44,582 nucleotides of DNA, taken from positions 26,618 through 71,199 of the forward strand of contig HF999802.1 in the NCBI GenBank assembly GCA_000434175.1, read 5' to 3'. Source of the stretch: Mycoplasma sp. CAG:611 (GTDB lineage: Bacteria; Bacillota_I; Bacilli_A; RF39; UBA660). The translations under genes and the position numbers were made by a program. Below are positions 1 through 38,789 of the stretch, one piece after another. A model generated the notes under the pieces. That model saw only the letters and a list, made by a program, of their open reading frames with translations, was not told the DNA's origin and did not search any database. Positions within the stretch are counted from its first letter, which is position 1, and each line of letters opens with the position of its first letter.

Positions 1-1280
1 GCAAAAATTTGACTGAAAGACCTGAAGTATCAAGATTAATTGAAGATGTTAAGAAAGGTAGAATTAAGAATGTTTTAATTTATAAATTAGATAGACTTAC
101 TAGAAGTGTTAAGGATCTAATTTATTTAATAGAACTATTTGATAAAAATAATTGTACTTTTAATTCTCAAACAGAAAAAATAGATACTTCTAATGCTGTT
201 GGAAGAATGTTTGTTAAGATTATTGGAATATTTGCAGAATTTGAAAGAGAAAATTTAGCCGAAAGAGTAACATTTGGATATGAACAAAAAACTAAAGAAG
301 GTAATTATACTAATTGTAATGGAGTATTTGGTTATGATTATATAGTTGGAAAGGGTAAATTAAAACTAAATAAAGGTGAAGCCTTATACGTAAAGAAAAT
401 ATATAACTGGTATTTAGAAGGCGAATCTATGCTTAAAATTGCTAAAAAATTAAAAGACTTAAATGTTCCTACTAAAAGAGGAGGGCATTGGAATCAGTCA
501 ACTATTTATTCAATACTTACCAATCCTCTTTATATTGGCAATGTAAGATATGGTGTAGGAAGAAAAAATAGTTTTGAAGTTAGTGGTAAAAATATAGTAC
601 CAATAATTTCTCCAGAACTATTTAATAATGTTAGTAATTTAATGAAGAAAAGAAAAAAATTTCATAATAAAAAATATTCTTCTGATGATACTTATTACTT
701 TAGAGTATTAAGGTGTAGTTTATGTGGGAGAGGGTATCACGCTAGACAGCAACTGCAAAGCGGTAAAAAATACATTACTTATCAGTGTAATGGACATAAC
801 AATAATAGTTGTAATGCACCTGGATTTTCCCATATAAAAATAGAAAATGCTTTTATAAATTATTTAGATAATATTAAAGATTTAGAATTTGATAAAAGTA
901 TTTTAAAGAAAGAAAAAGATAATACAGATAATAATACTTTAGAACTACAAGAACAAATAGATAAATTGAATAATAAGAAAAAAGAAACTTTAAAATTATT
1001 TACTACAGATGAAATAGATTATGAAACATTTAACGAAATAAAGAATGTAATAAATGAAAAATTAGAAGTTTTAAATAATGAATTAAATAGTTTTAATAAA
1101 GAAAATAATCAAGAAGATTTAACAAATGTAGAAGTTATAAAAGAGGTTATTGTTAACTTAAATAACAATTTTCTTCACCTTGATAATCATGAAAAAAAGA
1201 TGTTTCTAGAAAGATTTGTTAAAGAAATAAAAGTAAGAAAGGAAGGCAATGATGTGATAATTGATGAGGTAATATTTTAA
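1..1280 (+). CDS. Large serine recombinase, 5' end cut by the window edge
   Basis: The frame is open to base 3. Resolvase-domain motifs are present (VLIYKLDRLTRS, GIFAEFERENLAERV), then a recombinase domain (GGHWNQSTIYSILTNPLYIGN), a Cys-rich zinc-ribbon region (CSLCG...YQCNGH...C) and a coiled-coil tail. The catalytic Ser region lies upstream of the window. Confidence 0.85.
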   Translation, partial: KNLTERPEVSRLIEDVKKGRIKNVLIYKLDRLTRSVKDLIYLIELFDKNNCTFNSQTEKIDTSNAVGRMFVKIIGIFAEFERENLAERVTFGYEQKTKEGNYTNCNGVFGYDYIVGKGKLKLNKGEALYVKKIYNWYLEGESMLKIAKKLKDLNVPTKRGGHWNQSTIYSILTNPLYIGNVRYGVGRKNSFEVSGKNIVPIISPELFNNVSNLMKKRKKFHNKKYSSDDTYYFRVLRCSLCGRGYHARQQLQSGKKYITYQCNGHNNNSCNAPGFSHIKIENAFINYLDNIKDLEFDKSILKKEKDNTDNNTLELQEQIDKLNNKKKETLKLFTTDEIDYETFNEIKNVINEKLEVLNNELNSFNKENNQEDLTNVEVIKEVIVNLNNNFLHLDNHEKKMFLERFVKEIKVRKEGNDVIIDEVIF

Positions 1281-1283
1281 ATG

Positions 1284-1307
1284 GCTCACTTAAAAGTGAG
1301 CTTTTTT
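1284..1307 (+). terminator. Rho-independent terminator after the recombinase gene
   Basis: Hairpin gctcactt/aagtgagc followed by TTTTTT. Confidence 0.6.
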
Positions 1308-1362
1308 GTATGCAATAATTTAATTTAAAAGGGAGATGATTTAATGAAAACATTTAAAGGAA

Positions 1363-1887
1363 GTGTTTATCATAGATAAATATGTTTTGGTATATGCTTA
1401 TGTGCCAGAGCAATTTTTATCTAGAAAAGATTTATCTTACTTAGATAAACTTATTTATATTAGAATAGTAGGATTTTGTAGAAATAACAATTATAATAAT
1501 ACTTGTTTTGCTAGTAATGGGTATTTTGCTAATTTATTTGGAGTTAAACCAAAAGCAATATCTGTAACTATTAAGAAACTAAAAGATTTAAGATTAATAA
1601 ATGTTAAATATATTAAAAATGAAAATTTAGTTAAACAAAGAAGTATTACTCTAACAAGTAATGTATGGAAAGGGATAAGTAATGGTGCAGTAGTTAATAA
1701 GGAAGAAGATGTTCCTTATATGAAGGAATATAATAATAAGATAAATAATAATAAAGAAATATATAATAAAATTATATCTTATGATACTGATGGAGTAATG
1801 CTTTGGAATGATAAAAGATGTGAATCAGTACCGCCAACCAAAGAAGAGCAAAAAGAAATGGAAGATTTATTAAGTGAATTTAAGTAA
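1363..1887 (+). CDS. Winged-HTH protein of a mobile-element type (replication/regulatory-like)
   Basis: GTG start. The segment FASNGYFANLFGVKPKAISVTIKKLKDLRLINV resembles HTH/DnaD-N-like MGE proteins. No enzymatic motif was seen. Confidence 0.4.
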   Translation: MFIIDKYVLVYAYVPEQFLSRKDLSYLDKLIYIRIVGFCRNNNYNNTCFASNGYFANLFGVKPKAISVTIKKLKDLRLINVKYIKNENLVKQRSITLTSNVWKGISNGAVVNKEEDVPYMKEYNNKINNNKEIYNKIISYDTDGVMLWNDKRCESVPPTKEEQKEMEDLLSEFK

Positions 1888-1931
1888 TTTGACAAATGAA
1901 TAAAAAAGCAATAAAATTAAATAAAGAATAG

Positions 1932-1976
1932 AAAGTGCTAGTACAGACTTTATATGTTTTGTGCTGGCACTTTTTT
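1932..1976 (+). terminator. Rho-independent terminator
   Basis: A 13-bp stem aaagtgctagtac/gtgctggcacttt (2 G-U pairs) followed by a T-run. Confidence 0.6.
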
Positions 1977-2373
1977 CTTTGATGAAAGAGAGGTGTTCAT
2001 AAAAATATAATATGTCCTTATTCATCCATAGTTTTTACTAGTATGGTAGTAAGTTGGATTGTTCTATGGATTGAATTTTACTAGGAAAATAAAGGATAAA
2101 AAAAGAGTTATGGATGAATTCTTCCATAATTTAATGTCAATTTTGCAAGTGCAAAATAAGATTTGATAGCATTATAAGGCTATATAATATAAGCATTTAT
2201 ATATAGTAGTGCTATCATTCCCCTTATCCTGCTTAAAAATAATCTTTAAAAAAAGAAAGAAAAGGTGATGTGTATCGGGTTATTCCCTAAAAGAAAGGAA
2301 AGTTATTATTGTTAAAAATTAGATTAATTATATTATGTAAGGAGTTATTTATAGTTTAAGATAGGTAATTTAT

Positions 2374-2904
2374 TTGAGAGAACAAATTATCTTAAGTTAC
2401 CAAAACTTAATATATAAAATATTATCTCATTATAGAATTTTATATAATTATAATAAAGATTTTGAAGAAGACTATTTTCATGAAGGAATAATAGCATTAA
2501 CTTTAGCTTATGATACTTATAAAGATGATTGTAATATTAAGTTTATTACTTATGCATCAAGATGTATTCATAATAGATATAAAGATATATTTAAAAAGAA
2601 ATCATTTAATGAAGAACCATTAGATTTACAAATAAAAGATGATTTATATTTATTAGATATTATTCCATCAAAAGAAGAAAAGATTCTTGATATGTTAATA
2701 AGAAAAGAAACAAAAGAAGAGTTAGAAAAATTTTTGAATAATTTAAGTAATGATGATAACTTTATTATATGTAGTTTATATGGTATTAAAACTAAAAAAA
2801 TAACTCAAAAGAATTTAGCAAAGATACTTAATTGTACTCAAAGTTGTATTGCTAAAAAACATAATAAAATATTAAATCTAATTAAAGAGGATCTGAAATA
2901 TTAA
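2374..2904 (+). CDS. Element-encoded sigma-70 family sigma factor (small; regions 2 and 4)
   Basis: Region 2-like segment HEGIIALTLAYDTYKDDCNIKFITYASRCIHNRY and region 4 HTH ITQKNLAKILNCTQSCIAKKHNKIL. The TTG start has a weak RBS, so the start is uncertain. Confidence 0.65.
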   Translation: MREQIILSYQNLIYKILSHYRILYNYNKDFEEDYFHEGIIALTLAYDTYKDDCNIKFITYASRCIHNRYKDIFKKKSFNEEPLDLQIKDDLYLLDIIPSKEEKILDMLIRKETKEELEKFLNNLSNDDNFIICSLYGIKTKKITQKNLAKILNCTQSCIAKKHNKILNLIKEDLKY

Positions 2905-3074
2905 ATCAGGTTCTTTTTTAACAGTTTAATTTAAAAAGTTTTATTTATAATATTAGTTATAAAAAAACGAAATTCACGTTTAACTTAGATTTTAAAATAA
3001 AATCCTTAAATAAAAATGAAAGTAGTTTGTAAATGTCAATCTTTAATTTTATTTAAAATTTTTCAAATAGGGGG

Positions 3075-3102
3075 TTGACTATGTGGCAAAATATGGTAAA
3101 AT
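3075..3102 (+). promoter_or_regulatory. SigA-type promoter of the cargo operon
   Basis: TTGACT (3075-3080), a 16-nt spacer, then an extended -10 TGgTAAAAT (TAAAAT at 3097-3102). Confidence 0.6.
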
Positions 3103-3146
3103 ACTATTTAAATTACTTAGGAGGATGGTGGCATGAAAACATTAAC

Positions 3147-3284
3147 ATGAAAACATTAACAAATATGATATTTAAATGTTTCTTTAAAGAGAATTGCATT
3201 AACAGCCTAAATATTGTTAGTGCTATTTGCTCATGCTTTAATTTCTGCCTAAATTTAAAATTATGTCTTGTCGGCGCATGTTAA
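3147..3284 (+). CDS. Candidate 45-aa Cys-rich hydrophobic peptide in the operon leader (coding status uncertain)
   Basis: MKTLTNMIFKCFFKENCINSLNIVSAICSCFNFCLNLKLCLVGAC has 7 Cys. The AGGAGG at 3119-3124 serves the upstream duplicated ATG at 3133, which reads MKTLT-stop. That TGA overlaps this ATG as ATGA. Confidence 0.3.
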   Translation: MKTLTNMIFKCFFKENCINSLNIVSAICSCFNFCLNLKLCLVGAC

Positions 3285-3311
3285 ACGTAAAAGTTTTGCG
3301 CTGGCTTTTTT
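3269..3311 (+). terminator. Intrinsic terminator/attenuator between the leader and the Rel/SpoT gene
   Basis: A 9-bp stem gtcggcgca/tgcgctggc (2 G-U pairs) with an 18-nt loop, followed by 7 T. It sits 17 nt before the GTG start at 3328. Confidence 0.7.
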
Positions 3312-3327
3312 TATTGGAGGTGTTTAA

Positions 3328-4767
3328 GTGAATAATATTACATTACAAGATTTATTAAATAAGCTAAATGAATATAATCCTAACGAAATTGAAATTGTAA
3401 AAAAAGCATATGAATATGCAGCAAATTTGCACTCAGGTCAAACAAGGCAAAGTGGAGAACCATATATATGTCATCCATTAAATGTTGCTTATATACTCGC
3501 TGAAATGCATGCGGATAGAGATACAATATGTGCAGGATTATTACATGACACATTAGAAGATACTAATACTACTAAAGAAGACATATCACATGACTTTAAT
3601 CAAAATATTGCTAATTTAGTAGACGGAGTAACCAAATTATCTAAAATGAATTTCTCATCTAAGCAAGATCAAAATTATGCTAATACTAGAAAAATAATAA
3701 CAGGAATAACAGAAGATGTTAGAATAATAATTATTAAACTTGCTGATAGACTTCATAATATGAGAACACTACAATTTAAGTCTGAATTTAAACAAAAGGA
3801 AAATTCTATTGAAACAATGGAAATATTTGTACCTTTAGCTTATTATATTGGAGCATATAGAATTAAATCAGAATTAGAAGATTTATCATTAAAGTATCTT
3901 AAACCAGATATGTATAGACAAATAGAAGAACGTAAGATAAAATTAGAACAAACTAGTAGTTATTGTTTAACTGAAATGTTATCTAAAATAGAGCATTTAT
4001 TAAAAGATAACAACATACCTAATGAAATAAAGGTAAGAACTAAGAATATTTATGGTATATATAAAAGATTAAGTGAAGGTCATAAATTATCTGATATTCA
4101 TGATTTATTAGCACTAAAAATTATGGTTGATAATGTTGAAAATTGCTATAGAACACTGGGAATGATTCATAGTGAGTATCATCCAATAAATGATAAATTT
4201 AAAGATTATATATGTAATCCCAAAACAAATATGTATAGAAGCTTACATACAACAGTATTTGGACCTGATGATAAACTAGTACAGACTCAAATTAGAACAT
4301 TTGATATGGATAGAGTAGCGTCATTTGGCTTAACTGCATACTGGGATGAACAAAAAGGTAAAGCTAGAGATGTAATGCAAGAAGACTTAAAACAAAAATT
4401 TCAATTTTTTAAGTCATTAACAGAAATCAATTCTATGTTTGGTGATAATCAACAATTTGTTAAACAAGTAAAAAGTGAATTATTTGCTGATAAGGTTTAT
4501 GTATATACGACTAAGGGAGATATAATAGAACTTCCTAGAGGTTCTACACCAATAGATTTCGCATATAAAATTCATACTGACATAGGAAACACTATGGTAG
4601 GGGTATTTGTTAATGATGAATATGTCCCAATAGATTATATCTTACAAAATAAAGATAGAGTTAGAATAGTAATTGATGATTTATCATATGGTCCAAGAGA
4701 AGATTGGATTAATAAAGCACAAACAAGTTTAGCAAAAAGGAAAATAAAGGAATTTAATAAAAAATAA
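3328..4767 (+). CDS. Rel/SpoT homolog (HD hydrolase + synthetase-like + TGS domains) lacking the C-terminal regulatory half
   Basis: HD motifs HSGQTRQSGEPYICHP and LLHDTLEDT are present, along with LADRLHNMRTL. The synthetase region reads RTKNIYGIYKRL, DLLALKIMV and YRSLHTTV. The TGS domain reads VYVYTTKGDIIELPRGSTPIDFAYKIH. The protein ends about where helical/ZFD/ACT domains begin in full-length Rel. Confidence 0.85.
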   Translation: MNNITLQDLLNKLNEYNPNEIEIVKKAYEYAANLHSGQTRQSGEPYICHPLNVAYILAEMHADRDTICAGLLHDTLEDTNTTKEDISHDFNQNIANLVDGVTKLSKMNFSSKQDQNYANTRKIITGITEDVRIIIIKLADRLHNMRTLQFKSEFKQKENSIETMEIFVPLAYYIGAYRIKSELEDLSLKYLKPDMYRQIEERKIKLEQTSSYCLTEMLSKIEHLLKDNNIPNEIKVRTKNIYGIYKRLSEGHKLSDIHDLLALKIMVDNVENCYRTLGMIHSEYHPINDKFKDYICNPKTNMYRSLHTTVFGPDDKLVQTQIRTFDMDRVASFGLTAYWDEQKGKARDVMQEDLKQKFQFFKSLTEINSMFGDNQQFVKQVKSELFADKVYVYTTKGDIIELPRGSTPIDFAYKIHTDIGNTMVGVFVNDEYVPIDYILQNKDRVRIVIDDLSYGPREDWINKAQTSLAKRKIKEFNKK

Positions 4768-4819
4768 TATTCCAAATTAAAGAAATATATTAAAAAATAA
4801 GAAAGTAAGGTGTTTAAAT

Positions 4820-7003
4820 GTGATTGAAAAAAAAGAAATAAAAAATATTGATTGCAATATAGAAAATGTTTTTAATTATCCAGAAATGTATATAGATTTA
4901 ATTAATAAACAAAAAGGTTTAGTAAAAATTGATAAGAAAAAATACACAGGAAAATCATTGGTATTAGTTATGTTTACATCAGTGTGCGATGTCGGCTGCC
5001 CGTTCTGTTGCTTTAAAGCTTTATCTTCTGCGACTAAGAAAAATATTAAGAATCAATTTACTCCTGAAGGTGTTAATAAATTTATTGAGTTTGCTAATAA
5101 AGCAAATGTTGGATATTTGCAAATATCTGGTGGAGGAGAGCCTTTCTTGGAAAAAGAAGCGTTATTAAAAAGTATTGAAAAAATAAATGCTGATAGGATA
5201 ATTTTAGTTACCGGAGGGGTATGGGCATATAATAGAGAAAAAGCAGAAAAATACTTAGATGAAATAAACCAAGCTATCAAAAAAAGAAAGAAGAAAGCAC
5301 GTATTTCTATTAGATTAAGCATTAGTCAATGCCATAGTATTAAATTAAAACATTATCCACTAGAAAATTTAATTAATATATTTGAAACTAAATATAGAGA
5401 TAATAAAAACTTTACATTACAAATAAAAACATTTAAAGATGATCCAACGTTAGAAAATAATCTAAAGACAATGGGTAGAAAATTTAAAATTGAAAAACTT
5501 CAGCCTAATAAATCTGATGATGACAAAATCATTAAGATAATGCCTTGGAAATCAAAATTAATACTTGACTCTGGATTTGAAATAGTAATTGGAATATCAA
5601 GGGTTTTCTATCCATCATTCAGACCAAATCTACATAATAATAAGTCATTTATGAAAATGGTGGAACTATATGATATAGATTTAGATAAATCACAAAATTA
5701 TTTTCCGTCACGTGCGTATAACTCTAAAGGTTATTTTGGTTTAGATTGGCTTGTAGAATATAATGGTAACATTAGTACATGGCAAAATAGCATTCAGGAC
5801 GATCAATTGAATATCTATGAAGATAATTATAAAACATCATTAAATCATACATTAGCAAATTTAATAACAAGATCATGCATTGACAATGGCTCAAAATATA
5901 GAGAAAAAATTGTATCAGAAATATCACCGAAAACGGTTATGCTGATGAAAGCCAATGGGATTAGAGATTATGCAAGTTCAATCCTCTTTGCTGATGCAAA
6001 GATAAGACTTTATGCTTATATTAGAATATTACAAGATTACGTAAAACAAGGACTTGTAAATGAAAAATTAATAGAAAATATGCCAGCTAGTATACAAAAA
6101 TTAATAAAATCACCTAAAAGTGTAATAAAAAAATATTATTTAAAGTCTAATACTTCGATATTAGCTCAAGAATTAAGTGCAGAGCCAGATAGAGATAAGT
6201 ACAAAGATTTCTTAGAATTAGTTAAATTAGGACATTTTGAAATGTCTAAACAAGATATTCAAACAGCAGTCGCATATTATAATATGTTTTTTCCGGATAA
6301 AAGAATAGCCAAAATAGAAGACTTTGTTAACGATAATAAAAATATGGATTTTAGGTTAAGGGATAGACTCTCTCCGATGAAAAAATTAAAAGATTTGAAT
6401 AATAAAGTAAATAATAAAAAGGAAATTTATATTTTTAGACATGGAGAAACTAATTGGAATGTTGAAAATAAAATTAGAGGAACATTTGAAGACACATCTT
6501 TAAAATTTACTGATAAAGGATTAAAACAGATTGATAAAATAGCATTAGCATTAGAGAAAAATAAAATTGAATATATTTATTCATCAGATCTTATTAGAAC
6601 TAGGAAAACGGTTGAGCTAGCTAATAAAGATTTTAAAATACCGGTGTCTTTTCATAAAGAATTAAGAGCTTGGAATGTTGGAAAATATCAAGGTAAACCA
6701 CTTTCTAATTTTTTAAATAGTCATGAAGGCAAAGAAGCTATTACAGATTACAATAAAGTTGTAACTGATGGTGAAAGTATTAATCAAGTTAGAGAAAGAT
6801 TAATGTATTTCTTAGAAAAATATGTAGTTAATTGTCCTTATGAAAGGGTTGCAATAATTACACATGGAGCCACAATGAGTAATTTAAAATCAGAAATAGA
6901 TGGTGAACAATATATTGATATTGATTATTGCAAAATAGTGTATGAAAATAAAAAGTTTAAATTGGTTGAAAGTAAAATTAGTGAAACTGATTTCGCAAAA
7001 TAA
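4820..7003 (+). CDS. Fusion protein: N-terminal radical-SAM domain, unassigned middle region, C-terminal histidine phosphatase (PGM-family) domain
   Basis: The CX3CX2C motif CDVGCPFC and SGGGEPFL mark the radical-SAM domain. The C-terminus has IYIFRHGETNWN (RHG motif) and a second catalytic His in IITHGAT. GTG start with an AAGGTG RBS. Confidence 0.8.
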   Translation: MIEKKEIKNIDCNIENVFNYPEMYIDLINKQKGLVKIDKKKYTGKSLVLVMFTSVCDVGCPFCCFKALSSATKKNIKNQFTPEGVNKFIEFANKANVGYLQISGGGEPFLEKEALLKSIEKINADRIILVTGGVWAYNREKAEKYLDEINQAIKKRKKKARISIRLSISQCHSIKLKHYPLENLINIFETKYRDNKNFTLQIKTFKDDPTLENNLKTMGRKFKIEKLQPNKSDDDKIIKIMPWKSKLILDSGFEIVIGISRVFYPSFRPNLHNNKSFMKMVELYDIDLDKSQNYFPSRAYNSKGYFGLDWLVEYNGNISTWQNSIQDDQLNIYEDNYKTSLNHTLANLITRSCIDNGSKYREKIVSEISPKTVMLMKANGIRDYASSILFADAKIRLYAYIRILQDYVKQGLVNEKLIENMPASIQKLIKSPKSVIKKYYLKSNTSILAQELSAEPDRDKYKDFLELVKLGHFEMSKQDIQTAVAYYNMFFPDKRIAKIEDFVNDNKNMDFRLRDRLSPMKKLKDLNNKVNNKKEIYIFRHGETNWNVENKIRGTFEDTSLKFTDKGLKQIDKIALALEKNKIEYIYSSDLIRTRKTVELANKDFKIPVSFHKELRAWNVGKYQGKPLSNFLNSHEGKEAITDYNKVVTDGESINQVRERLMYFLEKYVVNCPYERVAIITHGATMSNLKSEIDGEQYIDIDYCKIVYENKKFKLVESKISETDFAK

Positions 7004-7018
7004 TGTAGGAGGTGTATT

Positions 7019-8860
7019 GTGGATAAGGAAATGTTATTATTAAAAGCTAAAAGAATTAATACATATAATAATAAGGAGCAAAAAGAAATCTACGATGAAG
7101 TTATAAAGAATTTTGATAAATTTAGTGAATCTGAGCAAATTGACTTACTGCTTATTATGCGTACATATTTTTTAAAACAAGCAACTTTAGTAGAAAAAAG
7201 AGAATATGTTAAGAAAGTTGTTATAAGTATTAAAAAGCAATCAAACTTTATAGCACAAATCATTGAGTTATCATCAATAATTTATAAGTATACTACTAAA
7301 TCATTGCAGAATGAAATATTTGATGCTGTCTTTTTGGTTAACGATATGAAGCCTAGAAAACTTGTTGCTATATTATATTTTATAAAAAATACACATCGTG
7401 TTTATAATAAAAAACAATTTGATATAAGTAGAAAGAAGATAGAAGAAATCACAAAAGAAGCACCAGAATATTTAACTGACGCAATTACAAGTTTAAATAA
7501 CGATATTAGTAAAGATTTCAAGAAAAAAGGAAAATATTTATTCTTAATACCAGAATTTTTAAATGGCACGACTTTTGTTCAACCACCTTTAGCTTTAATG
7601 AATTGTGCAACTTATTTGAAAAATGACTTTTCTATAGATGTTGATATTCTTGATAATAGAATTTATAATTATCCATTAAAAGATTTACTTAATATTATAC
7701 GTAATTATAAAAAAGGAATAGTAATTTGTTCTTCTACGATTGACCAAGTACATAATTATTTTGTTGATTATCGTTATGTTATTTTTACAAAGTACGTAAA
7801 AACTATTAAAGGTAAATTTAATAATATACCGATTATCATATGTGGTGGGCAGGGCACTGTGAGGCCAGATATCGTCTTTAACGATTGTAATCCTGATTAT
7901 ATATTAAAAGGGGAATTTGATATTCAATTAGCTAATGTAATTAGAAATATGGATAAAAATGTTCCAATTGAAAATCTTCCAAATATTATTTATAAAGAGA
8001 AGAAGAAAATAATTAAAACAAGAGAGGATTTGAATGAACAACATCCAGTTGAATGGTGTAAATATGTACCTAATTATAATTTGATTCATTTAGAATGTTA
8101 TTTTGGCTATAGATATTATGATAATATGCCGGTAAGAAAATTGCACTGGAGTGTTGTTCAAGCAAGTAGAGGGTGTCCATTTAATTGCGCTTTCTGTTAC
8201 AATTTTTTTGCTAAAAGTGTTCGCTTTAGAAAAATAGATTCGGTAATAGCCGAATTAAAAGAAATACAAGAACGTGGGATTGAAGAAATATTCTTCTTAG
8301 ATCAAAATTTTATACTTGATAAAAAATATGCACAAAATTTATGCAAAGCCATGATAAATACTAAAATTCGAATCAAATGGCAATGCCAGATTTGTGTAAA
8401 TTCAATAGACTATGATACACTTAGTGTTATGAAAAAGGCGGGGTGTCAATTAATTTGGTTAGGTATTGAAAGTTTTGATGAAAATGTTCGCAAAATTAAT
8501 AATAAGAATTATTCTAATGAGCAATTATTAAAAGCAGTAGTTGCAATTAAAAATGCAGGAATTAATTACAATGGATTCTTTATGCTTGGTATGATGGGGG
8601 ATACTAATGAATCAATGGGAAAAACAGTTGAGTTAATAAAAAAACACAAAATAAATCTTACCAAAAGCATATTAATATGTACTCCTAGATTTGATACACA
8701 AATGTATCAAGAAACTGTTAAACAATTGGGAACAGAAATTGATAGTTTTTTAAAACTTGATTCGTATAAAGGAAGTATTAATAATAATGTAACTGAATCT
8801 GATATTAGTTATTATTTAGGAGAATTATTAAAAATGTCTAATGACAAAAAAGGAGAGTGA
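7019..8860 (+). CDS. B12-binding-domain radical-SAM enzyme with an N-terminal extension of about 170 aa
   Basis: A Rossmann-like B12-binding-type region (LFLIPEF...PPLALMNCATYL...ILDNR) precedes SRGCPFNCAFCYN (CX3CX2C). GTG start 6 nt after GGAGG. Confidence 0.75.
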   Translation: MDKEMLLLKAKRINTYNNKEQKEIYDEVIKNFDKFSESEQIDLLLIMRTYFLKQATLVEKREYVKKVVISIKKQSNFIAQIIELSSIIYKYTTKSLQNEIFDAVFLVNDMKPRKLVAILYFIKNTHRVYNKKQFDISRKKIEEITKEAPEYLTDAITSLNNDISKDFKKKGKYLFLIPEFLNGTTFVQPPLALMNCATYLKNDFSIDVDILDNRIYNYPLKDLLNIIRNYKKGIVICSSTIDQVHNYFVDYRYVIFTKYVKTIKGKFNNIPIIICGGQGTVRPDIVFNDCNPDYILKGEFDIQLANVIRNMDKNVPIENLPNIIYKEKKKIIKTREDLNEQHPVEWCKYVPNYNLIHLECYFGYRYYDNMPVRKLHWSVVQASRGCPFNCAFCYNFFAKSVRFRKIDSVIAELKEIQERGIEEIFFLDQNFILDKKYAQNLCKAMINTKIRIKWQCQICVNSIDYDTLSVMKKAGCQLIWLGIESFDENVRKINNKNYSNEQLLKAVVAIKNAGINYNGFFMLGMMGDTNESMGKTVELIKKHKINLTKSILICTPRFDTQMYQETVKQLGTEIDSFLKLDSYKGSINNNVTESDISYYLGELLKMSNDKKGE

Positions 8861-8865
8861 TATAA

Positions 8866-9870
8866 ATGAATGCTAAAGAAATTAGTAAAAGTAAATATTT
8901 AGATTTTGTTGAAGAAAAATTTAAGGCTTGTTTTAATGAAAAAGGATATGTTGAAGAACCAGCAGTTAATGTTACTTCCAAAATTGATCCAACAGTTGAC
9001 TTTATAGGTTCTAATATTTCACCATTAAAAAAATACTTAGATAATGAAGAATATGGTGATATAGGAAGATACATTGTGCAGGAATGTATGAAATATAAAT
9101 CATTTAAATATCTGAAAACTGATGTTCCACAAAAATTTGGCTGTTATTATAGAGGAATGGGAATAATAGCAAAACCAGATTTAGAAACAGTTGTTAAAGA
9201 TACTTTTGATTATTTAACTGATGAAAAATATTTAAACATTCCTCCTAAAGATCTTTGTATAAAGATTAGTTCTAAGGATGATGATTTAGTAAAGGCAACT
9301 GAAATTATCGATGGTGAAATAACTCGTTTAGTTGAGCAATCAAGCACTGAACATTATAGGCATCAATACGGCATGGATGAAAAAAATATTTTTGGAAGAG
9401 ATTTTAATATAGGCCTTAGAAAAAAAGACACAAATGAGTTTTTGAATTTTGCTGCTTTTGTTGTTATGGAAAATAATGATAGAAAGTTAGCTATTGATAT
9501 GGGGATTAGCAATTTAGTTTTATCTATGTGTAAATTTGGTACAAGTTCTACAGTAGCTAGTTCAAGAATTGCAGATTTTCTTGACATAGATTGTATTATA
9601 AAAGAAAAATTTGCAGATGCATTAGTTGCTGTATCAATTTTATTGAAAGAAGATATCACCAATCATAGATCTAAACATTTAAGAATGAAATTTAATCAAT
9701 ATTTACGTGTATTAAATTATTGGAATGAACAATTACAATATACTAACGAAGATGTAGTTAATTTAATTGTAAATTATTTAACTGCAGAATATCATTCTTG
9801 CTTTGAGCAAAGAAAAGATGAATTTTATAAAGTATTAACTTTGCAAAAAAAACGTATGGGTATAAAATAG
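8866..9870 (+). CDS. Stand-alone alanyl-tRNA-synthetase catalytic-core-like protein (divergent, possibly non-canonical)
   Basis: A by-eye alignment to the AlaRS N-terminus holds along the whole length. KEISKSKYLDF..IDPTVDFIGSNISPLKKYL matches AEIRQAFLDFF..NDPTLLFTNAGMNQFK. AIDMGISNLVLSM matches VDTGMGLERIAAV. ADALVAVSILLKEDI..HLRMKFNQYLRVL matches ADHIRSCAFLIADGV..YVLRRIIRRAVR. Confidence 0.5.
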   Translation: MNAKEISKSKYLDFVEEKFKACFNEKGYVEEPAVNVTSKIDPTVDFIGSNISPLKKYLDNEEYGDIGRYIVQECMKYKSFKYLKTDVPQKFGCYYRGMGIIAKPDLETVVKDTFDYLTDEKYLNIPPKDLCIKISSKDDDLVKATEIIDGEITRLVEQSSTEHYRHQYGMDEKNIFGRDFNIGLRKKDTNEFLNFAAFVVMENNDRKLAIDMGISNLVLSMCKFGTSSTVASSRIADFLDIDCIIKEKFADALVAVSILLKEDITNHRSKHLRMKFNQYLRVLNYWNEQLQYTNEDVVNLIVNYLTAEYHSCFEQRKDEFYKVLTLQKKRMGIK

Positions 9871-9902
9871 ATTATTATATAATAATAAGTATGGAGGATA
9901 AA

Positions 9903-10607
9903 ATGAGATTATTTTTAGCTAGTAATATTGGGGGTATAAAAAAGGAAAATGGTAATAAAATGCCAGTAAAATTTTTTGAAGATAATAAATTTTTAAAAAA
10001 TATGAAAGAAAGCATAAAGGATTACAATAAATTTGTTATTATTGCGAGTGATCCTGACAATTACGAATTAAACGATAATTATCTAAAACTAGATACAGAA
10101 ATTTTAGCATTATCAGGTCTTAAATTTAAAGAAAGTTTGGTACTTGATAATCGAAATAAAGAAGATATTGGTAATATACTTAAGAATAGTTCACTTATTT
10201 TTCTTAGTGGTGGTAATACATTTCAGCAAAATATGTTTTTAAATGCTATAAAGCTTAAAGATTATATCAAAGAAACTGATGCATGTATTGTTGGGATTAG
10301 TGCTGGCGCAATAAATAGTGCAGAAATTGTGTTTAGTAGTCCTGAAAATGAAAAAGATTTAACTCGTTCTGTCATATTAAAAGGTCTTGCTTTAACTACA
10401 ATTAACGTTGAACCACATTTTGATTTAGATAATCCTAATAAGATTCAAATGGATTCAATAATAAAAGAGTCAAATAATAGGATTATTTATGGGCTTCCAG
10501 ATAAATCGTATATATTTAATAATAAAGTTTATGGTAAATGTTATAGAATTTATAAAGAAAATATTGAACTAATTTCAAATGATGATGAAATAATAGATAT
10601 ATATTAA
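9903..10607 (+). CDS. Peptidase S51 family (dipeptidase E / cyanophycinase-like)
   Basis: FLSGGNTFQQ and VGISAGAINS (the GxSAG nucleophile elbow) are present. I chose the ATG at 9903, 5 nt after GGAGG, over the ATG at 9891. Confidence 0.7.
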   Translation: MRLFLASNIGGIKKENGNKMPVKFFEDNKFLKNMKESIKDYNKFVIIASDPDNYELNDNYLKLDTEILALSGLKFKESLVLDNRNKEDIGNILKNSSLIFLSGGNTFQQNMFLNAIKLKDYIKETDACIVGISAGAINSAEIVFSSPENEKDLTRSVILKGLALTTINVEPHFDLDNPNKIQMDSIIKESNNRIIYGLPDKSYIFNNKVYGKCYRIYKENIELISNDDEIIDIY

Positions 10608-10638
10608 TTAATAATTTTTCTTAAGGAGGTTGATTTAA

Positions 10639-11355
10639 TTGATAATTTCAAATGATTTATTTTATTTAAGTGGTAGTTGTTTTTCTGCGGTAAATAATAA
10701 AAGTATATTAGGCGAAGTATATGGTATAAATACAGGCCAAGGGTTAATATTAATAGATTGTGGAGAGGCTTCAACTGGTCCTGCTATGTTGAAAAAAACA
10801 TTAAAAAAATTTAATATTAATTCGCCTATAACGCATGTCATTCTTACTCATGGACACCACGATCACTGTGGAGGTGCTAAAGAAATGCAAGAGGCAGGTG
10901 CGAAAATTATAGTAGGTGCAGGTGATGCAACTTATTGCAAACAAGGTGGGCCAAAAGGAACACCATATGATATAGAGCAATCATTTCCTGCATTTATTCC
11001 CGATGTAGAAATATCTGTAGACAAAGAAATGATTATAAACGGTATTATGTTTGAATTTATTATGATACCAGGACATACAAATGGAGGAATGGCCATTAGG
11101 GTAAAGGTCGATGGTAAACTTGTTTTGTTTACCGGTGATACATTGGAAGCGGATGGAACTTACTTAGATAAATTTTTATTTGGTTGGGAAGGAGATCCAG
11201 CTTTTAATAAAGAAGAGATTGTTAATAGTATAATGAAATTAGCAAAATATAAAGCTGATATAGTTTTATCTGGCCACGGAAAAATATGCTTAATAAATGG
11301 TACTAAGTTGATCCGTCAAGCAGCAAAAAAAGTGAAAAGCATTCTAAATGTATGA
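10639..11355 (+). CDS. Metallo-beta-lactamase-fold hydrolase
   Basis: HxHxDH motif in VILTHGHHDHCGGA, with later His/Asp ligands (PGHTNGG, TGDT, SGHG). TTG start after GGAGG. Confidence 0.8.
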   Translation: MIISNDLFYLSGSCFSAVNNKSILGEVYGINTGQGLILIDCGEASTGPAMLKKTLKKFNINSPITHVILTHGHHDHCGGAKEMQEAGAKIIVGAGDATYCKQGGPKGTPYDIEQSFPAFIPDVEISVDKEMIINGIMFEFIMIPGHTNGGMAIRVKVDGKLVLFTGDTLEADGTYLDKFLFGWEGDPAFNKEEIVNSIMKLAKYKADIVLSGHGKICLINGTKLIRQAAKKVKSILNV

Positions 11356-12008
11356 TGTGTTTTATTATTGATTTTATTGTATATCGAAAAGAAATTGAGC
11401 CTATTAATTTTTTTGAATTGTAACTATCATCTCTAAAATGTAATATATCATTTGATAAGTATACTGAGAGATTATTATGATTCTCAATTGATTTAGAAGC
11501 AGAGGGCATAAAAATGTAAATTTGATATAAGAAATGCAAAAAGGGTTATGGCATTGGAGTTACAAAATTAGTGCATGAAGAATATACATTAAAAGTTAAA
11601 AAAGCAAGTGAAGAAGTTTTTGGTAATATAGGAAATTTTGAAAATACTGAAATTGCAAGTATTAGAAAACGGTATTATGCTATAGATGTTTAAATGCTAT
11701 CATGAATATTTGAACCTAAAGCGAAATCAATAATATTATTTTCTCAAAAAAGTATCAGTATAAATAGTAAGTTAATAGATGTAAATATGGTAGTTAATTG
11801 TTTATTACATATATATAAGGAATTATGATAGATAATAATTTTAGTATTGAATATAATAAAAAATCATAGAAAATCAATTAAAGAATTTGAATTAAATCAA
11901 ACTACGTGTTTCTTAGCTAATAGTCAAAATAAAAAAATTATGAAACTATTTGTAAAAATTAAAAAGGTGTGGTATCATTTCATCAAGAAGTGATACCACT
12001 CACTATAG

Positions 12009-12542
12009 CAATATTCACATACAAATAAACTTGTTAGGTTTTATGAAGGAGCAGATGGTCTTAAAACGGGTTCAACTACAGATGCTGGAAAATGTATCGC
12101 AGCAACTGCCAAAAGAAATGGTTTAAGACTTATTGCAATAAGTTTAGGATATAAAGATGTAACAACAAGAAATAAAGAAACAATGGATTTACTTGATTAT
12201 GGTTTTAATCAATATGAAATAAATATGCTTTATGAAAAAGATAAAAAAGTAGGAACAGTTAATGTAGATAAGGTAAATGAAAAAATAGATTTATATGCTA
12301 AAGAAGATATATTTATATTAAAAAAGAAAATAGATGAAAGTATTTCTTATCAATATGAAATAGTTTTAGATAATGTTAGTTATCCAATTAAAAAAGGTCA
12401 AAAAATAGCAACACTTTATGTAAAAGACAATAATACAATAGTAAAAAAATCTCCTTTAGTAGTAAATAAAGATATAAATAAGATGAGTATATTAAAGTTA
12501 TATTTTTATAACTTAAAAGACATTCTAGCAGGATTAAATTAA
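12009..12542 (+). pseudogene. 3' fragment of a D-alanyl-D-alanine carboxypeptidase (PBP5/DacB/DacF type)
   Basis: The frame opens after the TAG at 12006-12008 and reads HTNKLVRFYEGADGLKTGSTTDAGKCIAATAKRNGLRLIAISLG...LLDYGF, which includes the KTG motif and C-terminal domain. The SxxK and SxN parts are absent from the window. Confidence 0.7.
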
Positions 12543-12565
12543 GACAAGTTATTTGTCTTTTTTTA
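12541..12565 (+). terminator. Rho-independent terminator after the dac fragment
   Basis: Stem aagacaa/ttgtctt with a 5-nt loop, followed by a T-run. Confidence 0.6.
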
Positions 12566-12606
12566 ATTTTTATGATATAATACGGTCACTTTAAGGGGAT
12601 GTTTTG

Positions 12607-13059
12607 ATGAATTTTGTAAATAAAGAACATTTTAATATATTTTTAAGAGGATTAACTTATCTTGGACAAGGATTTCAAGGAATATGTTATTTAAATAAAA
12701 ATAATAATATAGTATATAAAGTTTTTCATGAATATATGGATAATGAAAAAGCAGGTTATGATAAAGATTTTTTATTACGATTTAGTAATATTAAAAATAA
12801 TACATTTATATGGCCGACTGATGTTATTTATGTAGAAAATGAATTAGTGGGTTATACAATGCCTTATAAAAACTCTAAAAATCTTTTTCAAATAGATCCT
12901 TTATCTGTTAGTTTAAATGCTTTAGAAAAAGGGATTACAAATATTTTTAAAGATATTAAAATAATAACAGATAACAATGTTACTTTATATGATGTTATGT
13001 ATAATATTATGTATAAAAATGGTAGATTATATGTTGTTGATACTTTAGAACAGGAATAA
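12607..13059 (+). CDS. Protein-kinase-like fold fragment (Gly-rich loop plus VYK), probably C-terminally truncated
   Basis: LGQGFQGICYL...IVYKVF resembles a kinase P-loop with its Lys. The ORF ends where an unrelated histidine-kinase remnant begins. Confidence 0.3.
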   Translation: MNFVNKEHFNIFLRGLTYLGQGFQGICYLNKNNNIVYKVFHEYMDNEKAGYDKDFLLRFSNIKNNTFIWPTDVIYVENELVGYTMPYKNSKNLFQIDPLSVSLNALEKGITNIFKDIKIITDNNVTLYDVMYNIMYKNGRLYVVDTLEQE

Positions 13060-21998: not shown

Positions 21999-22577
21999 AT
22001 GATAGAACAATTAGAACAAAAAACAGTAATTAAAAGTAATAAAAAAGAAAATAAGAAAAACTTAAATTTAAGTAAAAGAATTGATAATGTATTAAAAAAT
22101 ATTAACGAAAGAAACCCTGTAAAATTAAGAAATTATACACCACAAATATTAGTTGAAAATGGTGTTAAAGATCTTCCAATGTATGAAAACCCATCTCATA
22201 TAAGAAAAAACATTTTAACTAAAAAAGAGACACAAAAATTAGGCTTAGCAACAAGTATAAGAAATCATTATCATGGTTTAGGTAAGGAACTTTATATAAA
22301 AATAATTAATAGTTTGGACAGCCCGAGAGTTATATTTAAAAATAAAAACAATAAGGATTATTTGATATTAACGACAGTTAAAGATGATAATAATAGTAAC
22401 ATAATAGTTCTCATTGAAATAGAAACAATTACAAAAATAAATATCTTTAATATTGACATTAATAGAATAAAGACTGTATATGGTTATGATAGGAAAGATC
22501 CTGATTTAAATAAATATATTAAAAATAATATTAAATTAGGAAGGTTTACAAAAATTTATGAACAAAAAAGAACTTAA
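21999..22577 (+). CDS. Stand-alone MuF-C-terminal/PBECR-like domain protein (MGE-associated)
   Basis: The pattern LPMYENPSHIRKNIL...HYHGLGKELYIKIINSLDSPRVIF...YLILTTVKDDNNSNIIVLIEI...INRIKTVYGYD matches my recollection of that domain. No search was run. Confidence 0.35.
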   Translation: MIEQLEQKTVIKSNKKENKKNLNLSKRIDNVLKNINERNPVKLRNYTPQILVENGVKDLPMYENPSHIRKNILTKKETQKLGLATSIRNHYHGLGKELYIKIINSLDSPRVIFKNKNNKDYLILTTVKDDNNSNIIVLIEIETITKINIFNIDINRIKTVYGYDRKDPDLNKYIKNNIKLGRFTKIYEQKRT

Positions 22578-26173: not shown

Positions 26174-26875
26174 ATGAGTTTACATATAAAAACAGAATAT
26201 GATGATGATATAGCAAAATTAGTAATTATGCCAGGTGACCCTGTTCGTGTTAAATTTATCGCAGAAAACTATTTAGATGATTATAAATTAGTAAATAATG
26301 TTAGATTAAATTTAGCTTACACAGGATATTATAAAGGAGTTAAAGTAACGGTTATGTCTTCAGGTATGGGATGTCCAAGTATGGCAATTTATGCTAAAGA
26401 ATTATTTGACTATTATAATGTTGAAAAAATTATAAGGGTAGGTTCATGCGGAAGTTATTATGATGAAATAGATGTTAAAAGCGTAATTTTAGCAGAAAAA
26501 GCATATACTTTATCAAACTTTAGTTATCAATACGATGGAAATGAGCTTGATTTAATAAGTGCTTCATCATTCTTAAATCAAAAAATAATCGAAAATGCAT
26601 ATAAAGCAAATATCGAGTTAAGAATAGGTAATATTGAAACAACAGATGTTTTTTATAAAACAATTAATAATCCTGAAGTTAAAAAAAATTACTGTTTAGG
26701 TGTAGAAATGGAAACATTTGCTCTTTTCTATGTTGCAAGTTTATACAAAAAACAAGCAAGCAGTATTTTAACTGTATCAGATAATTTAGTTAATAATAAA
26801 AAATTAACTACCGAAGAAAGGGAAACAACATTTAATGAGGCAATAAGCCTTGCCCTTAATTCTATAATAGAATAA
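26174..26875 (+). CDS. deoD: Purine nucleoside phosphorylase, DeoD type
   Basis: MPGDPVR, SSGMGCPSMAIYAKEL, RVGSCGS and GVEMETFALF. Confidence 0.85.
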   Translation: MSLHIKTEYDDDIAKLVIMPGDPVRVKFIAENYLDDYKLVNNVRLNLAYTGYYKGVKVTVMSSGMGCPSMAIYAKELFDYYNVEKIIRVGSCGSYYDEIDVKSVILAEKAYTLSNFSYQYDGNELDLISASSFLNQKIIENAYKANIELRIGNIETTDVFYKTINNPEVKKNYCLGVEMETFALFYVASLYKKQASSILTVSDNLVNNKKLTTEERETTFNEAISLALNSIIE

Positions 26876-30314: not shown

Positions 30315-30575
30315 ATGGATACACTTAAAGTGTCAAGTAAATCTAACCCAAATTCAGTTGCAGGAGCATTAACTAATGTTTTTAGAGATAAAGGAAAAGT
30401 AGAAATACAAGCAATTGGAGCAGGAGCACTTAATCAAGCAATTAAAGGAGTAGCAATAGCAAGAGGATTTGTTGCCCCAAGTGGTAAAAATTTAGTATGT
30501 ATTCCTGCTTTTACTGATATAAGTATAGATGGGGAAGAACGAACAGCGATAAAATTAATTGTAGAAGCAAAGTAA
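30315..30575 (+). CDS. spoVS: Stage V sporulation protein S
   Basis: An 86-aa protein reading LKVSSKSNPNSVAGAL...IQAIGAGALNQAIKGVAIARGF...IPAFT, typical of SpoVS. Confidence 0.88.
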   Translation: MDTLKVSSKSNPNSVAGALTNVFRDKGKVEIQAIGAGALNQAIKGVAIARGFVAPSGKNLVCIPAFTDISIDGEERTAIKLIVEAK

Positions 30576-38284: not shown

Positions 38285-38354
38285 TCTTTCTTCTTTTTTT
38301 AGGCATAATTAGACATTCTTTCCTTTTATACTAAAAATGGAAGGAAGGATGATT

Positions 38355-38789
38355 ATGAAAGAATATTATATTTTTAATTTAAAAAAGGAGTTTGCTAAAT
38401 TATATAAAGATAGGCCTAGTGAACTATTTTACATATTTAATAGAATTTATTATATGAAAGAAGTAGATAAAAATTATGGTTATAATTTATTTGAACAAAT
38501 ATGTAATTTTATAGATAAAAAAGAAATAAATGAATATCTTTATAATATATATAAAGATAAAATGATGTATTCTTATAATGAAAATGAACATGTTATTAAT
38601 AATTTATTTTTAAATGAAATTAGTATTTTGAAAGTAAAAAATAGTAATTTAAGATTAGAAACTAATAAAGAAGATTGTTCTTTTTTAAAAGATTTAAATA
38701 GTTTTAATAATACTTATTTTGTATGTGATTTTAAAAATCAAGAGTTTTTCTTTTTAAAAAATAATAAGGTAATACTTAAAAATTTATAA
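38355..38789 (+). CDS. sirA: SirA (YneE)-like sporulation inhibitor of replication
   Basis: YYIFNLKKEFAKLYKDRPSELFYIF resembles B. subtilis SirA YYTYLIKEEFANHYFGRESVMFELF. The size is similar and the gene lies immediately upstream of yneF, as in B. subtilis. Confidence 0.5.
   Translation: MKEYYIFNLKKEFAKLYKDRPSELFYIFNRIYYMKEVDKNYGYNLFEQICNFIDKKEINEYLYNIYKDKMMYSYNENEHVINNLFLNEISILKVKNSNLRLETNKEDCSFLKDLNSFNNTYFVCDFKNQEFFFLKNNKVILKNL

Follow-up and report, generated by a model that had tools for sequence, protein, structure and literature searches.

Structure of the split dac locus

The DNA analysed here, called the window throughout, is a stretch of 44,582 nucleotides with a G+C content of 24% (C56:26618-71199, positions 26,618 to 71,199 of contig HF999802.1) from the 0.93-Mb, 56-contig genome of Mycoplasma sp. 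CAG:611, estimated to be 96% complete. At its left end a PBP5-type DD-carboxypeptidase gene (dac) is interrupted by a 12.5-kb island, of which window positions 1-12028 form the larger part. The island is a phage-derived, non-autonomous cargo element that lies inside the codons for the NTNK motif of Dac. From left to right the locus consists of the dac 5' half, attL, a micro open reading frame (micro-ORF) of 34 aa, a gene for a large serine recombinase (LSR), the remnant of a replication-initiator gene, a sigma factor gene, a cargo operon of seven genes, a hairpin, attR and the dac 3' half (Table 1).

A preliminary description of the window, made from its letters alone, had stated that a dac reading frame lacking the half with the SxxK and SxN motifs begins abruptly at 12009, that the window starts inside an LSR gene, and that everything to the left of dac is accessory. 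These statements were borne out. The 3' frame opens at 12009, straight after a TAG at 12006-12008, begins with QYSHTNKLVRFYEGADGLKTG and stops at 12540-12542. It contains the KTG box and the C-terminal part of PBP5, has neither SxxK nor SxN, and is covered by PF00768 (Peptidase_S11) over profile positions 185-237 only. Its first codons (12009-12020, QYSH) are derived from the island; the real junction is an 8-bp core, ACAAATAA, at 12021-12028. Window base 1 falls at about codon 53 of the LSR gene, and positions 1 to ~12020 are missing from a relative whose flanking sequences are 94-97% identical.

The absent 5' half of dac had been predicted to lie just upstream in the same orientation, and it was found there as a 224-aa ORF (C56:25463-26137) ending ~480 bases before window base 1. 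The encoded polypeptide has a signal peptide and the motifs SLTK and SAN, and its C-terminus reads ...TWIANTNK-PVYK*. The segment C56:25463-26604 contains, in this order, the dac 5' half, attL, the micro-ORF and the first ~52 codons of the LSR gene. The core ACAAATAA is present at both junctions (C56:26114 and window 12021). When the two halves were joined in silico at the core, an intact ORF was obtained, encoding a 390-aa Dac with SLTK, SAN and KTG. This polypeptide is identical in every letter to a public protein (P0121), the product of a natural allele found with an empty site, in the same gene neighbourhood as here (rpoD-trmK-YqfQ-VanY / dac / fmt), on 24-30 public contigs. An empty site was also found in a human-gut metagenome-assembled genome (MAG), 'uncultured Tenericutes bacterium UMGS1485', in which dac is uncut (97% identity) and the collinear flanks are 94-97% identical; its two alignments to C56 (L006) overlap by exactly the 8-bp core. 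Because of the shared core, the matching empty site and the natural joined allele, the locus can be described as a precise 12.5-kb insertion, and simple deletion of dac, which comparison with island-free relatives was to decide, is ruled out. Precise boundaries of the empty site in relatives are what is expected of an integrative element of the LSR type. Restoration of an intact ORF by precise excision, expected of elements that intervene in sporulation genes, was obtained in silico only.

The attachment sites have the form known from LSR elements, with a short identical core and imperfectly palindromic attP and attB arranged about a central dinucleotide. The reconstructed attP carries the outer inverted repeats TACTATAGCA and TGCTATAGTA and is centred on the AA of the Lys codon (TACTATAGCA...AAAT[AA]A...TGCTATAGTA), and attB is the quasi-palindrome CTAACA..TGTTAG in the NTNK-coding stretch. 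The LSR has the domains typical of this enzyme class (PF00239, PF07508 and PF13408), with the catalytic-serine motif YCRVSTEEQ at residues 6-14. Just before window base 1 its gene is interrupted by a scaffold gap of 13 N that has the same 22 nt, GCAAAAATTTGACTGAAAGACC, on either side (gap with flanking repeats, C56:26583-26639). The gap is an unmerged contig overlap from which no sequence is missing: collapsing the duplicate yielded an LSR of 475 aa, whose gene starts with MQTAIYCRVSTEEQ, and the identical intact ORF is present in other independent assemblies.

A family of elements inserted in dac

Homologues of the LSR were searched for in 401 genomes of the order. They were detected, at 49-96% identity, in 30 genomes belonging to ~23 genera, and in 29 of the 30 the element was located inside dac, always at the Lys codon of NTNK. 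Dac-splitting LSR elements are carried by ~7% of the sampled species of the order. For the window locus, many independent assemblies show the occupied form. The islands range from 2.7 to 50 kb: the smallest, in G286 (2.7 kb), consists of a Fic gene and the LSR gene, and is followed by those of G407 (3.3 kb), the present genome (12.5 kb) and G277 (50 kb). All 15 fully assembled split dac genes gave a single ORF of 368-401 aa upon joining in silico. Neither half was decayed in these 15, nor in the ~29 split genes overall.

The elements form a family characterized by the LSR and the micro-ORF, with two orientations and one crossover dinucleotide, AA. In types A and A' (the window island is of type A) the LSR gene adjoins the 5' half of dac and has the same direction as dac, whereas type B has it on the opposite strand, at the far end of the element. 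The attP sites of the two orientation types differ in sequence but have a common centre of symmetry, the AA of the Lys codon. The LSRs are 87-96% identical in genera whose Dac proteins are only 44-54% identical to that of the window. The occurrence of near-identical LSRs next to distant Dac proteins points to horizontal mobility, at present or in the recent past. In one genome (G406:C57, L077, ~8150-8600, minus strand) the element was found at an intergenic attB-like pseudo-site, ...TATACAAACGAATAAA/GTCGTG..., and dac was intact.

Several loci deserve separate mention. The 50-kb insertion (G277:C5:10825-62210, L068-L070) has an LSR gene at each end, the two being of different subtypes, and probably consists of two elements stacked at one site. 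In G102 two different dac 5' halves, both ending at residue 222, are located on separate contigs (G102:C1 and G102:C23:15766-16398); either a second paralogue is split or strains are mixed in this assembly. The cargo of small type-B elements includes proteins of the Fic/DOC family (L020, G037:C15, 6427-7530 and 9103-9936; L057 in G286), and that of G037 also a 367-aa protein which, with HIGH and KMSKS-like motifs, resembles class-I aminoacyl-tRNA synthetases. The split dac of G016 was not counted as an insertion, as both halves stop at contig ends. Also discarded, from the public protein collection, were 'Dac fusion' proteins of 456, 541 and 416 aa and 280-aa members of the cluster, which are chimeric contigs or an unrelated helix-turn-helix (HTH) protein.

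The micro-ORF, a candidate directionality factor

Each of the 23 elements with a full-length LSR keeps a micro-ORF of 27-45 aa, and in 23/23 it is on the dac sense strand. In types A and A' its position is just before the LSR gene; type B has it at another place in the element. The encoded peptides share the core EIMKFFLxTSxPRIL, in general form (L/I)x(I/L)(E/D)(I/M)M(K/E)FF(L/I)xTSxP(R/K)IL, match phrog_30936, and have a median ratio of nonsynonymous to synonymous substitution rates (dN/dS) of 0.21. The elements without the micro-ORF are exactly those whose LSR has no Zn-ribbon and no coiled coil. The recombination directionality factor (RDF) of the gin element, GirX, is the product of an unannotated ORF of 42 aa (PMC5595907). 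Since the micro-ORF is conserved together with the full-length LSR, and given the precedent of GirX for its size, the peptide is proposed as a candidate RDF.

In G093 and G365 the micro-ORF begins 35-60 nt past the junction, so close that in these two genomes the dac promoter could plausibly drive it by read-through. In type-A elements a conserved sequence, TTGGAATAwTT-N14-sTATAAT, precedes the micro-ORF and the LSR gene, which speaks for a promoter belonging to the module itself. CATA-containing blocks occur further upstream of this sequence; the element fits none of the sigma-A, -E, -K and -G classes well enough to be assigned. A generic scan for sigma-70 promoters performed no better than on shuffled sequences. 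Type-A elements also have an AT-rich 13-bp hairpin with a U-run after the stop codon of the dac 5' half (dG -12.9, z -4.75). A terminator scan found nothing, although this hairpin folds well.

Sporulation genes and the dac promoter

The genome encodes Spo0A and a SigK that scores above its equivalog cut-off in NCBIfam, as well as SigG-, SigE-, SigF- and SigH-like factors scoring below theirs. The sigK gene is uninterrupted. Further sporulation genes are those for SpoIVA, YabP, a SpoVB-like flippase and YetF, and the spoVS and sirA-like genes named in the preliminary description are indeed present in the window (Table 1). The order RF39 comprises uncultured gut Bacilli with small genomes, for which spore formation by means of a reduced set of genes has been predicted (PMC10868615).

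An invariant CATA box is located 12-14 nt before the ribosome-binding site (RBS) in 26 of the 26 dac orthologues examined, intact or split, and an ATA/TAAAT-rich block lies 13-19 nt upstream of this box. Boxes of the CATA type precede 11 of the 450 RBS-preceded ORFs of the genome, yabP and the spoVB-like gene among them. The box of spoIVA reads TCATATA-N13-CATAAATTT, and sigK also has one of the CATA type. In contrast, sigG is preceded by a sequence of the forespore type (GAATA-N18-CATTATA) and the dac paralogue on C33 by one of the TATAAT type. The published sigma-E consensus has a CATA-type -10 and an ATA -35 element (PMC3789822), and in B. subtilis dacB is under sigma-E control (PMC517825). 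Because its CATA-type box matches the published consensus, dac is probably a sporulation gene of the mother cell (sigma-E/K type), an assignment in which we have moderate confidence. The neighbourhood of dac in this genome says nothing on orthology with DacB as against DacF; in G037 dac is divergent from a spoIIAA-like/sigF-like gene pair.

Two observations concern other regulators of this genome. At G000:C33:7758-8752 the genes for a SpoIIAA-like STAS protein and a SigF-like factor overlap directly and are not separated by spoIIAB, in line with the reported lack of spoIIAB in RF39 (PMC10868615). At G000:C35:6737-10072 three tandem full-length RpoD-like paralogues (354-383 aa) are encoded beside the housekeeping rpoD on C56, which is unusual for a genome of 0.93 Mb.

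Selection on the split gene in genus g64

Four species of genus g64 share one element (G249:C2, L053; G120:C1, L054; G082:C24, L071; G263:C53, L072). It encodes a 729-aa membrane protein and an LSR cut right after the recombinase domain (269-275 aa), and has no Zn-ribbon, coiled coil or micro-ORF. Within the element, synonymous divergence (dS) is 0.09-1.1 for the truncated LSR gene (dN/dS 0.15-0.19) and 0.09-0.52 for the membrane protein gene (dN/dS 0.10-0.28); for the downstream gene of the host it is 0.26-0.9 (dN/dS 0.14-0.70). Element and host genes have commensurate dS values, so the insertion is older than the speciation in g64. Both dac halves are open. Their dN/dS values are 0.02-0.09 for the N-half (dS 0.15-1.6) and 0.05-0.22 for the C-half (dS 0.18-0.96), compared with 0.09-0.58 for the intact dac of genus g1.

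The split dac is thus at least as constrained as an intact one, which suggests that it is still used, and because the product is a secreted single-chain enzyme, continued use would mean that the gene is rejoined. Retention in the germ line together with constraint on both halves, a hallmark of intervening elements, is therefore seen in g64, in a relative of the window island. This constraint is the strongest indirect evidence for skin-like behaviour; the argument concerns a relative of an island that is itself polymorphic in its own species, and it assumes vertical descent with little recombination with intact alleles. The ~270-aa LSR of g64 may be a resolvase-like, domesticated enzyme capable of excision only.

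Other genes of the island and the window

The genes of the island and further features are listed in Table 1. The HTH_36 protein, which resembles the N-terminal part of phage replication initiators, is interpreted as a remnant of a phage-like backbone. The island's sigma factor matched the generic sigma70-ECF superfamily model of NCBIfam with 66 bits and the SigK and SigE models with ~56 bits, far below their cut-offs; it probably regulates the cargo operon. The Cys-rich small ORF in the leader of the operon, just upstream of two radical-SAM genes, has a hydrophobic tail, ...CFFKENCINSLNIVSAICSCFNFCLNLKLCLVGAC, and could encode a precursor of a ribosomally synthesized and post-translationally modified peptide. 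The Rel/SpoT homologue (RSH) of the island is regarded as accessory, since the host has a 718-aa Rel of its own on C26. For the cargo, PADLOC gave only weak generic matches.

Structural, packaging and lysis genes of phages were not found in the island with Pfam and PHROGs, which recognized only the integrase, the replication-initiator remnant and the sigma factor. Nor was a relaxase, a coupling protein or a type IV secretion system detected among the island ORFs of at least 60 aa scanned against Pfam; an oriT may be present. No Rfam family was found in window 1-12700. The sequence of the hairpin at the right end of the island also precedes attR in G077, G236 and G102. Outside the island, among housekeeping genes, window positions 21999-22577 encode a protein of 192 aa whose C-terminal domain is of the phage MuF type (PF18819).

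Table 1. Positions of the features described in the text (window coordinates unless a contig or locus is given)
Feature	Position	Strand	Evidence or remark
34-aa micro-ORF, MTCLSKNISLEIMKFFLNTSVPRILRERKGITSN	C56:26311-26415 (L089 3848-3952)	dac sense strand	upstream of window base 1
LSR gene, 3' 423 codons (full gene 475 aa)	1..1280	+	Pfam Resolvase, Recombinase, Zn_ribbon_recom; phrog_95 integrase, 341 bits
HTH_36 protein, like N-terminal part of phage replication initiators	1363..1887	+	PF13730; phrog_270/678/186 (replication initiation or DnaD-like)
sigma-70 family factor, 176 aa	2374..2904	+	Sigma70_r2; phrog_351
cargo operon, seven genes, leader first	3075..11355	+	Pfam
leader with Cys-rich small ORF	3075-3327	+	
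truncated Rel/SpoT homologue	3328-4767	+	Pfam
radical-SAM/His-phosphatase fusion	4820-7003	+	Pfam
B12-type radical SAM protein	7019-8860	+	Pfam
334-aa protein	8866-9870	+	no match in Pfam and PDB
S51 peptidase	9891-10607	+	Pfam
MBL hydrolase	10639-11355	+	Pfam
hairpin, 13-bp stem, GTGGTATCA...TGATACCAC, right end of type-A elements	11969..11999	+	dG -20 kcal/mol, z -6.5
attR: island-side arm CACTATAGCAATATTCACAT, core ACAAATAA (12021-12028) common with attL, dac-side arm	12001..12050	+	in-silico join, empty-site alignments
dac 3' half, from TNKLVRFYEGADGLKTG to stop, with PBP5 C-terminal domain	12021..12542	+	joined with 5' half, 390 aa identical to P0121
spoVS	30318-30566		
SirA-family gene	38337-38789		PF10747

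Proposed mechanism and alternative explanations

The interpretation that we prefer, and to which we assign a probability of about 0.5, is that the island rejoins dac by excision, most likely during spore formation, following the logic of the skin, SPbeta and gin elements. According to this proposal the LSR integrates the element at attB, the quasi-palindrome in the NTNK-coding stretch of dac, a step that we regard as established from the sequences. The LSR and the micro-ORF product would then carry out precise attL x attR excision and rebuild dac, for which the case is fairly strong, with the peptide as the proposed directionality factor in the manner of GirX. The module would be transcribed either from the dac promoter, through read-through, or from its own promoter. 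Because dac is read as a mother-cell sporulation gene, productive excision would take place in the terminally differentiated mother cell, while the spore genome would keep the element; in this part of the scheme our confidence is moderate.

The preliminary description had also suggested a skin- or SPbeta-like element, which implies developmentally timed excision; its further idea, that the cargo operon and its sigma factor might be developmentally timed, is speculation. The skin- or SPbeta-like reading gained indirect support, because the genome encodes core sporulation regulators, the CATA promoter is present in 26/26 dac orthologues, minimal elements with hardly more than an LSR exist, and the split gene is under purifying selection in g64, which inherited the element vertically. 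It fared less well in two respects that weigh against excision during sporulation: the LSR operon has no clear sigma-E/K promoter, the conserved sequence before the micro-ORF and the LSR gene of type-A elements being not clearly of the CATA type, and NCBIfam gave the present Dac no DacB or DacF label, only generic DacD/PBP3-type matches. Other points tell in the same direction. The hairpin after the stop codon of the dac 5' half is terminator-like and would limit read-through. There are two further dac paralogues in the genome, so that loss of the split dac could be tolerated. The host is an uncultured MAG whose sporulation is predicted, the dN/dS argument rests on another genus with a truncated LSR, and the use of a pseudo-site in G406 is ordinary mobile-element behaviour. 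Products of excision were also sought. No attB or attP junction from an occupied strain was seen in contig searches, in which attR itself was found once: attP had 0 matches in JGI metagenome contigs and 0 in IMG/VR, and, as the attR control detected only one contig, this result is uninformative. The assembly of the genome itself contains no attB or attP contig, and no sample was common to the empty and the occupied forms among the matches listed.

Some of these observations would be accounted for by an ordinary LSR cargo island that knocks out one of three redundant dac genes and is excised rarely, for transfer only. Many phage LSRs integrate inside genes without any developmental role, as Bxb1 does in groEL1, and phiC31 is another example. 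The near-identity of LSR modules in genera with divergent Dac proteins, the highly variable cargo of the dac-splitting elements, the pseudo-site of G406, the polymorphism of the window island within its own species, the two paralogues and the sigma-A-like -10 box before the LSR operon are all in keeping with this explanation. We nevertheless consider it rather unlikely, for it does not readily explain why neither half is decayed in the 15 assembled split dac genes or in the ~29 overall, why the g64 element co-diverged with its hosts to a dS of ~1 with both halves open and dN/dS of 0.02-0.2, or why minimal elements of 2.7-4 kb, devoid of transfer and replication genes, still keep an intact LSR and the micro-ORF. 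A reversible on/off switch of dac in vegetative cells, independent of sporulation (active lysogeny or phase variation), has a precedent in the comK phages of Listeria. An LSR with a candidate RDF could catalyse both directions, and the sigma-A-like promoter element upstream of the module would suit such a switch. Yet most of the elements have no replication function, so the excised circle would be lost at division; the dac promoter is of the CATA sporulation type and not TATAAT; and repeated re-integration is hard to reconcile with the long vertical inheritance in g64, where the LSR is truncated and the micro-ORF absent. We therefore judge a vegetative switch to be improbable.

An assembly artefact, a chimeric scaffold or a plain deletion of dac might be suspected from the 13-N gap with its unmerged 22-nt overlap at the window start, and from the G016 dac halves that both end at contig ends. 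These possibilities are refuted: many independent ENA contigs, up to 190 kb long, show the order dacN - micro-ORF - 475-aa LSR - HTH - sigma - RSH without a break, ~29 other genomes have this architecture, and the empty site matches base for base. Excision of the island in sporulating cells remains the preferred interpretation. A bolder extension of it, in which the elements would constitute a lineage-wide, self-timed module for splitting and restoring a gene, with the micro-ORF product as the smallest RDF of an LSR, transcribed from the dac sporulation promoter so that excision would coincide in time and place with expression of the split gene, and with a domesticated LSR in g64, is speculative, and we think it unlikely to hold in full.

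Comparison with known intervening elements

Intervening elements excised during sporulation are known in cultured Bacillus and Clostridium, in sigK, spsM, spoVFB, spoVR, gerE and yabG. No published dac-splitting element was found in a literature search. New features of the present family are the dac target, the host lineage, the breadth of the family, the conserved micro-ORF and the constrained truncated recombinase of g64. If the proposed mechanism is correct, a peptidoglycan DD-carboxypeptidase joins the list of targets, and the phenomenon extends to abundant uncultured Bacilli of the human gut with genomes of ~1 Mb. It would provide indirect evidence that such reduced-genome gut bacteria sporulate, and attB or attP junction reads could then serve as a DNA marker of sporulation in vivo in metagenomes. 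The family would also offer a large natural series of LSR, att-site and micro-ORF triplets directed at one target, useful for studies of directionality and as a source of orthogonal integrases.

The gin element, which splits gerE in Bacillus cereus ATCC 10987 and encodes the LSR GirC and the RDF GirX (PMC5595907), is likewise a non-prophage cargo element, and its target is a sporulation gene, as dac probably is. Shared by the two systems are an LSR accompanied by a very small ORF that usually goes unannotated, an identical short core at both junctions and, here in silico, precise in-frame restoration. They differ in that gin belongs to a system with gerE as the target and three LSRs, whereas here a DD-carboxypeptidase gene is split by an element with one LSR in an uncultured gut host with a ~1-Mb genome. 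The micro-ORF product (EIMKFFLxTSxPRIL) is likened to GirX by its size, and here excision, its timing and the RDF role are proposed from sequence.

The skin elements in sigK (SpoIVCA in B. subtilis; CD1231 with the RDF CD1234 in C. difficile; PMC5025042) are also degenerate, phage-derived, equipped with an LSR and polymorphic among strains. They lie in a mother-cell gene, as dac probably is, and they can persist in the germ line, as proposed for the present element, only if excision takes place in a terminal cell. The target of skin is a master regulator, whereas here it is an enzyme gene with paralogues, and sigK is uninterrupted; moreover, the present family occurs in >20 genera with sizes down to 2.7 kb. 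SPbeta in spsM (SprA/SprB; PMC4191935, PMC5499854) similarly uses an LSR at a quasi-symmetric site, in a gene of sporulation, which dac probably is too. As in SPbeta, the recombinase is plausibly constitutive and the RDF would set the direction, and the location of the micro-ORF on the dac sense strand would allow control by a host promoter or by sporulation, as for sprB. Unlike SPbeta, an active phage of 134 kb, the island has no structural or lysis genes, and the closest phage LSRs are 30-36% identical to its own.

Bxb1 (groEL1), phages of the A118 type (comK) and Tn4451 with TnpX share with the present elements the enzyme family, the logic of the att sites, the disruption of genes, mobility and the use of pseudo-sites (here in G406). 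The evidence suggests that the present elements differ from these in their long retention, in a target that is under selection, and in the existence of minimal elements with recombination functions only. In architecture and logic they match the gene-intervening elements skin, SPbeta and especially gin.

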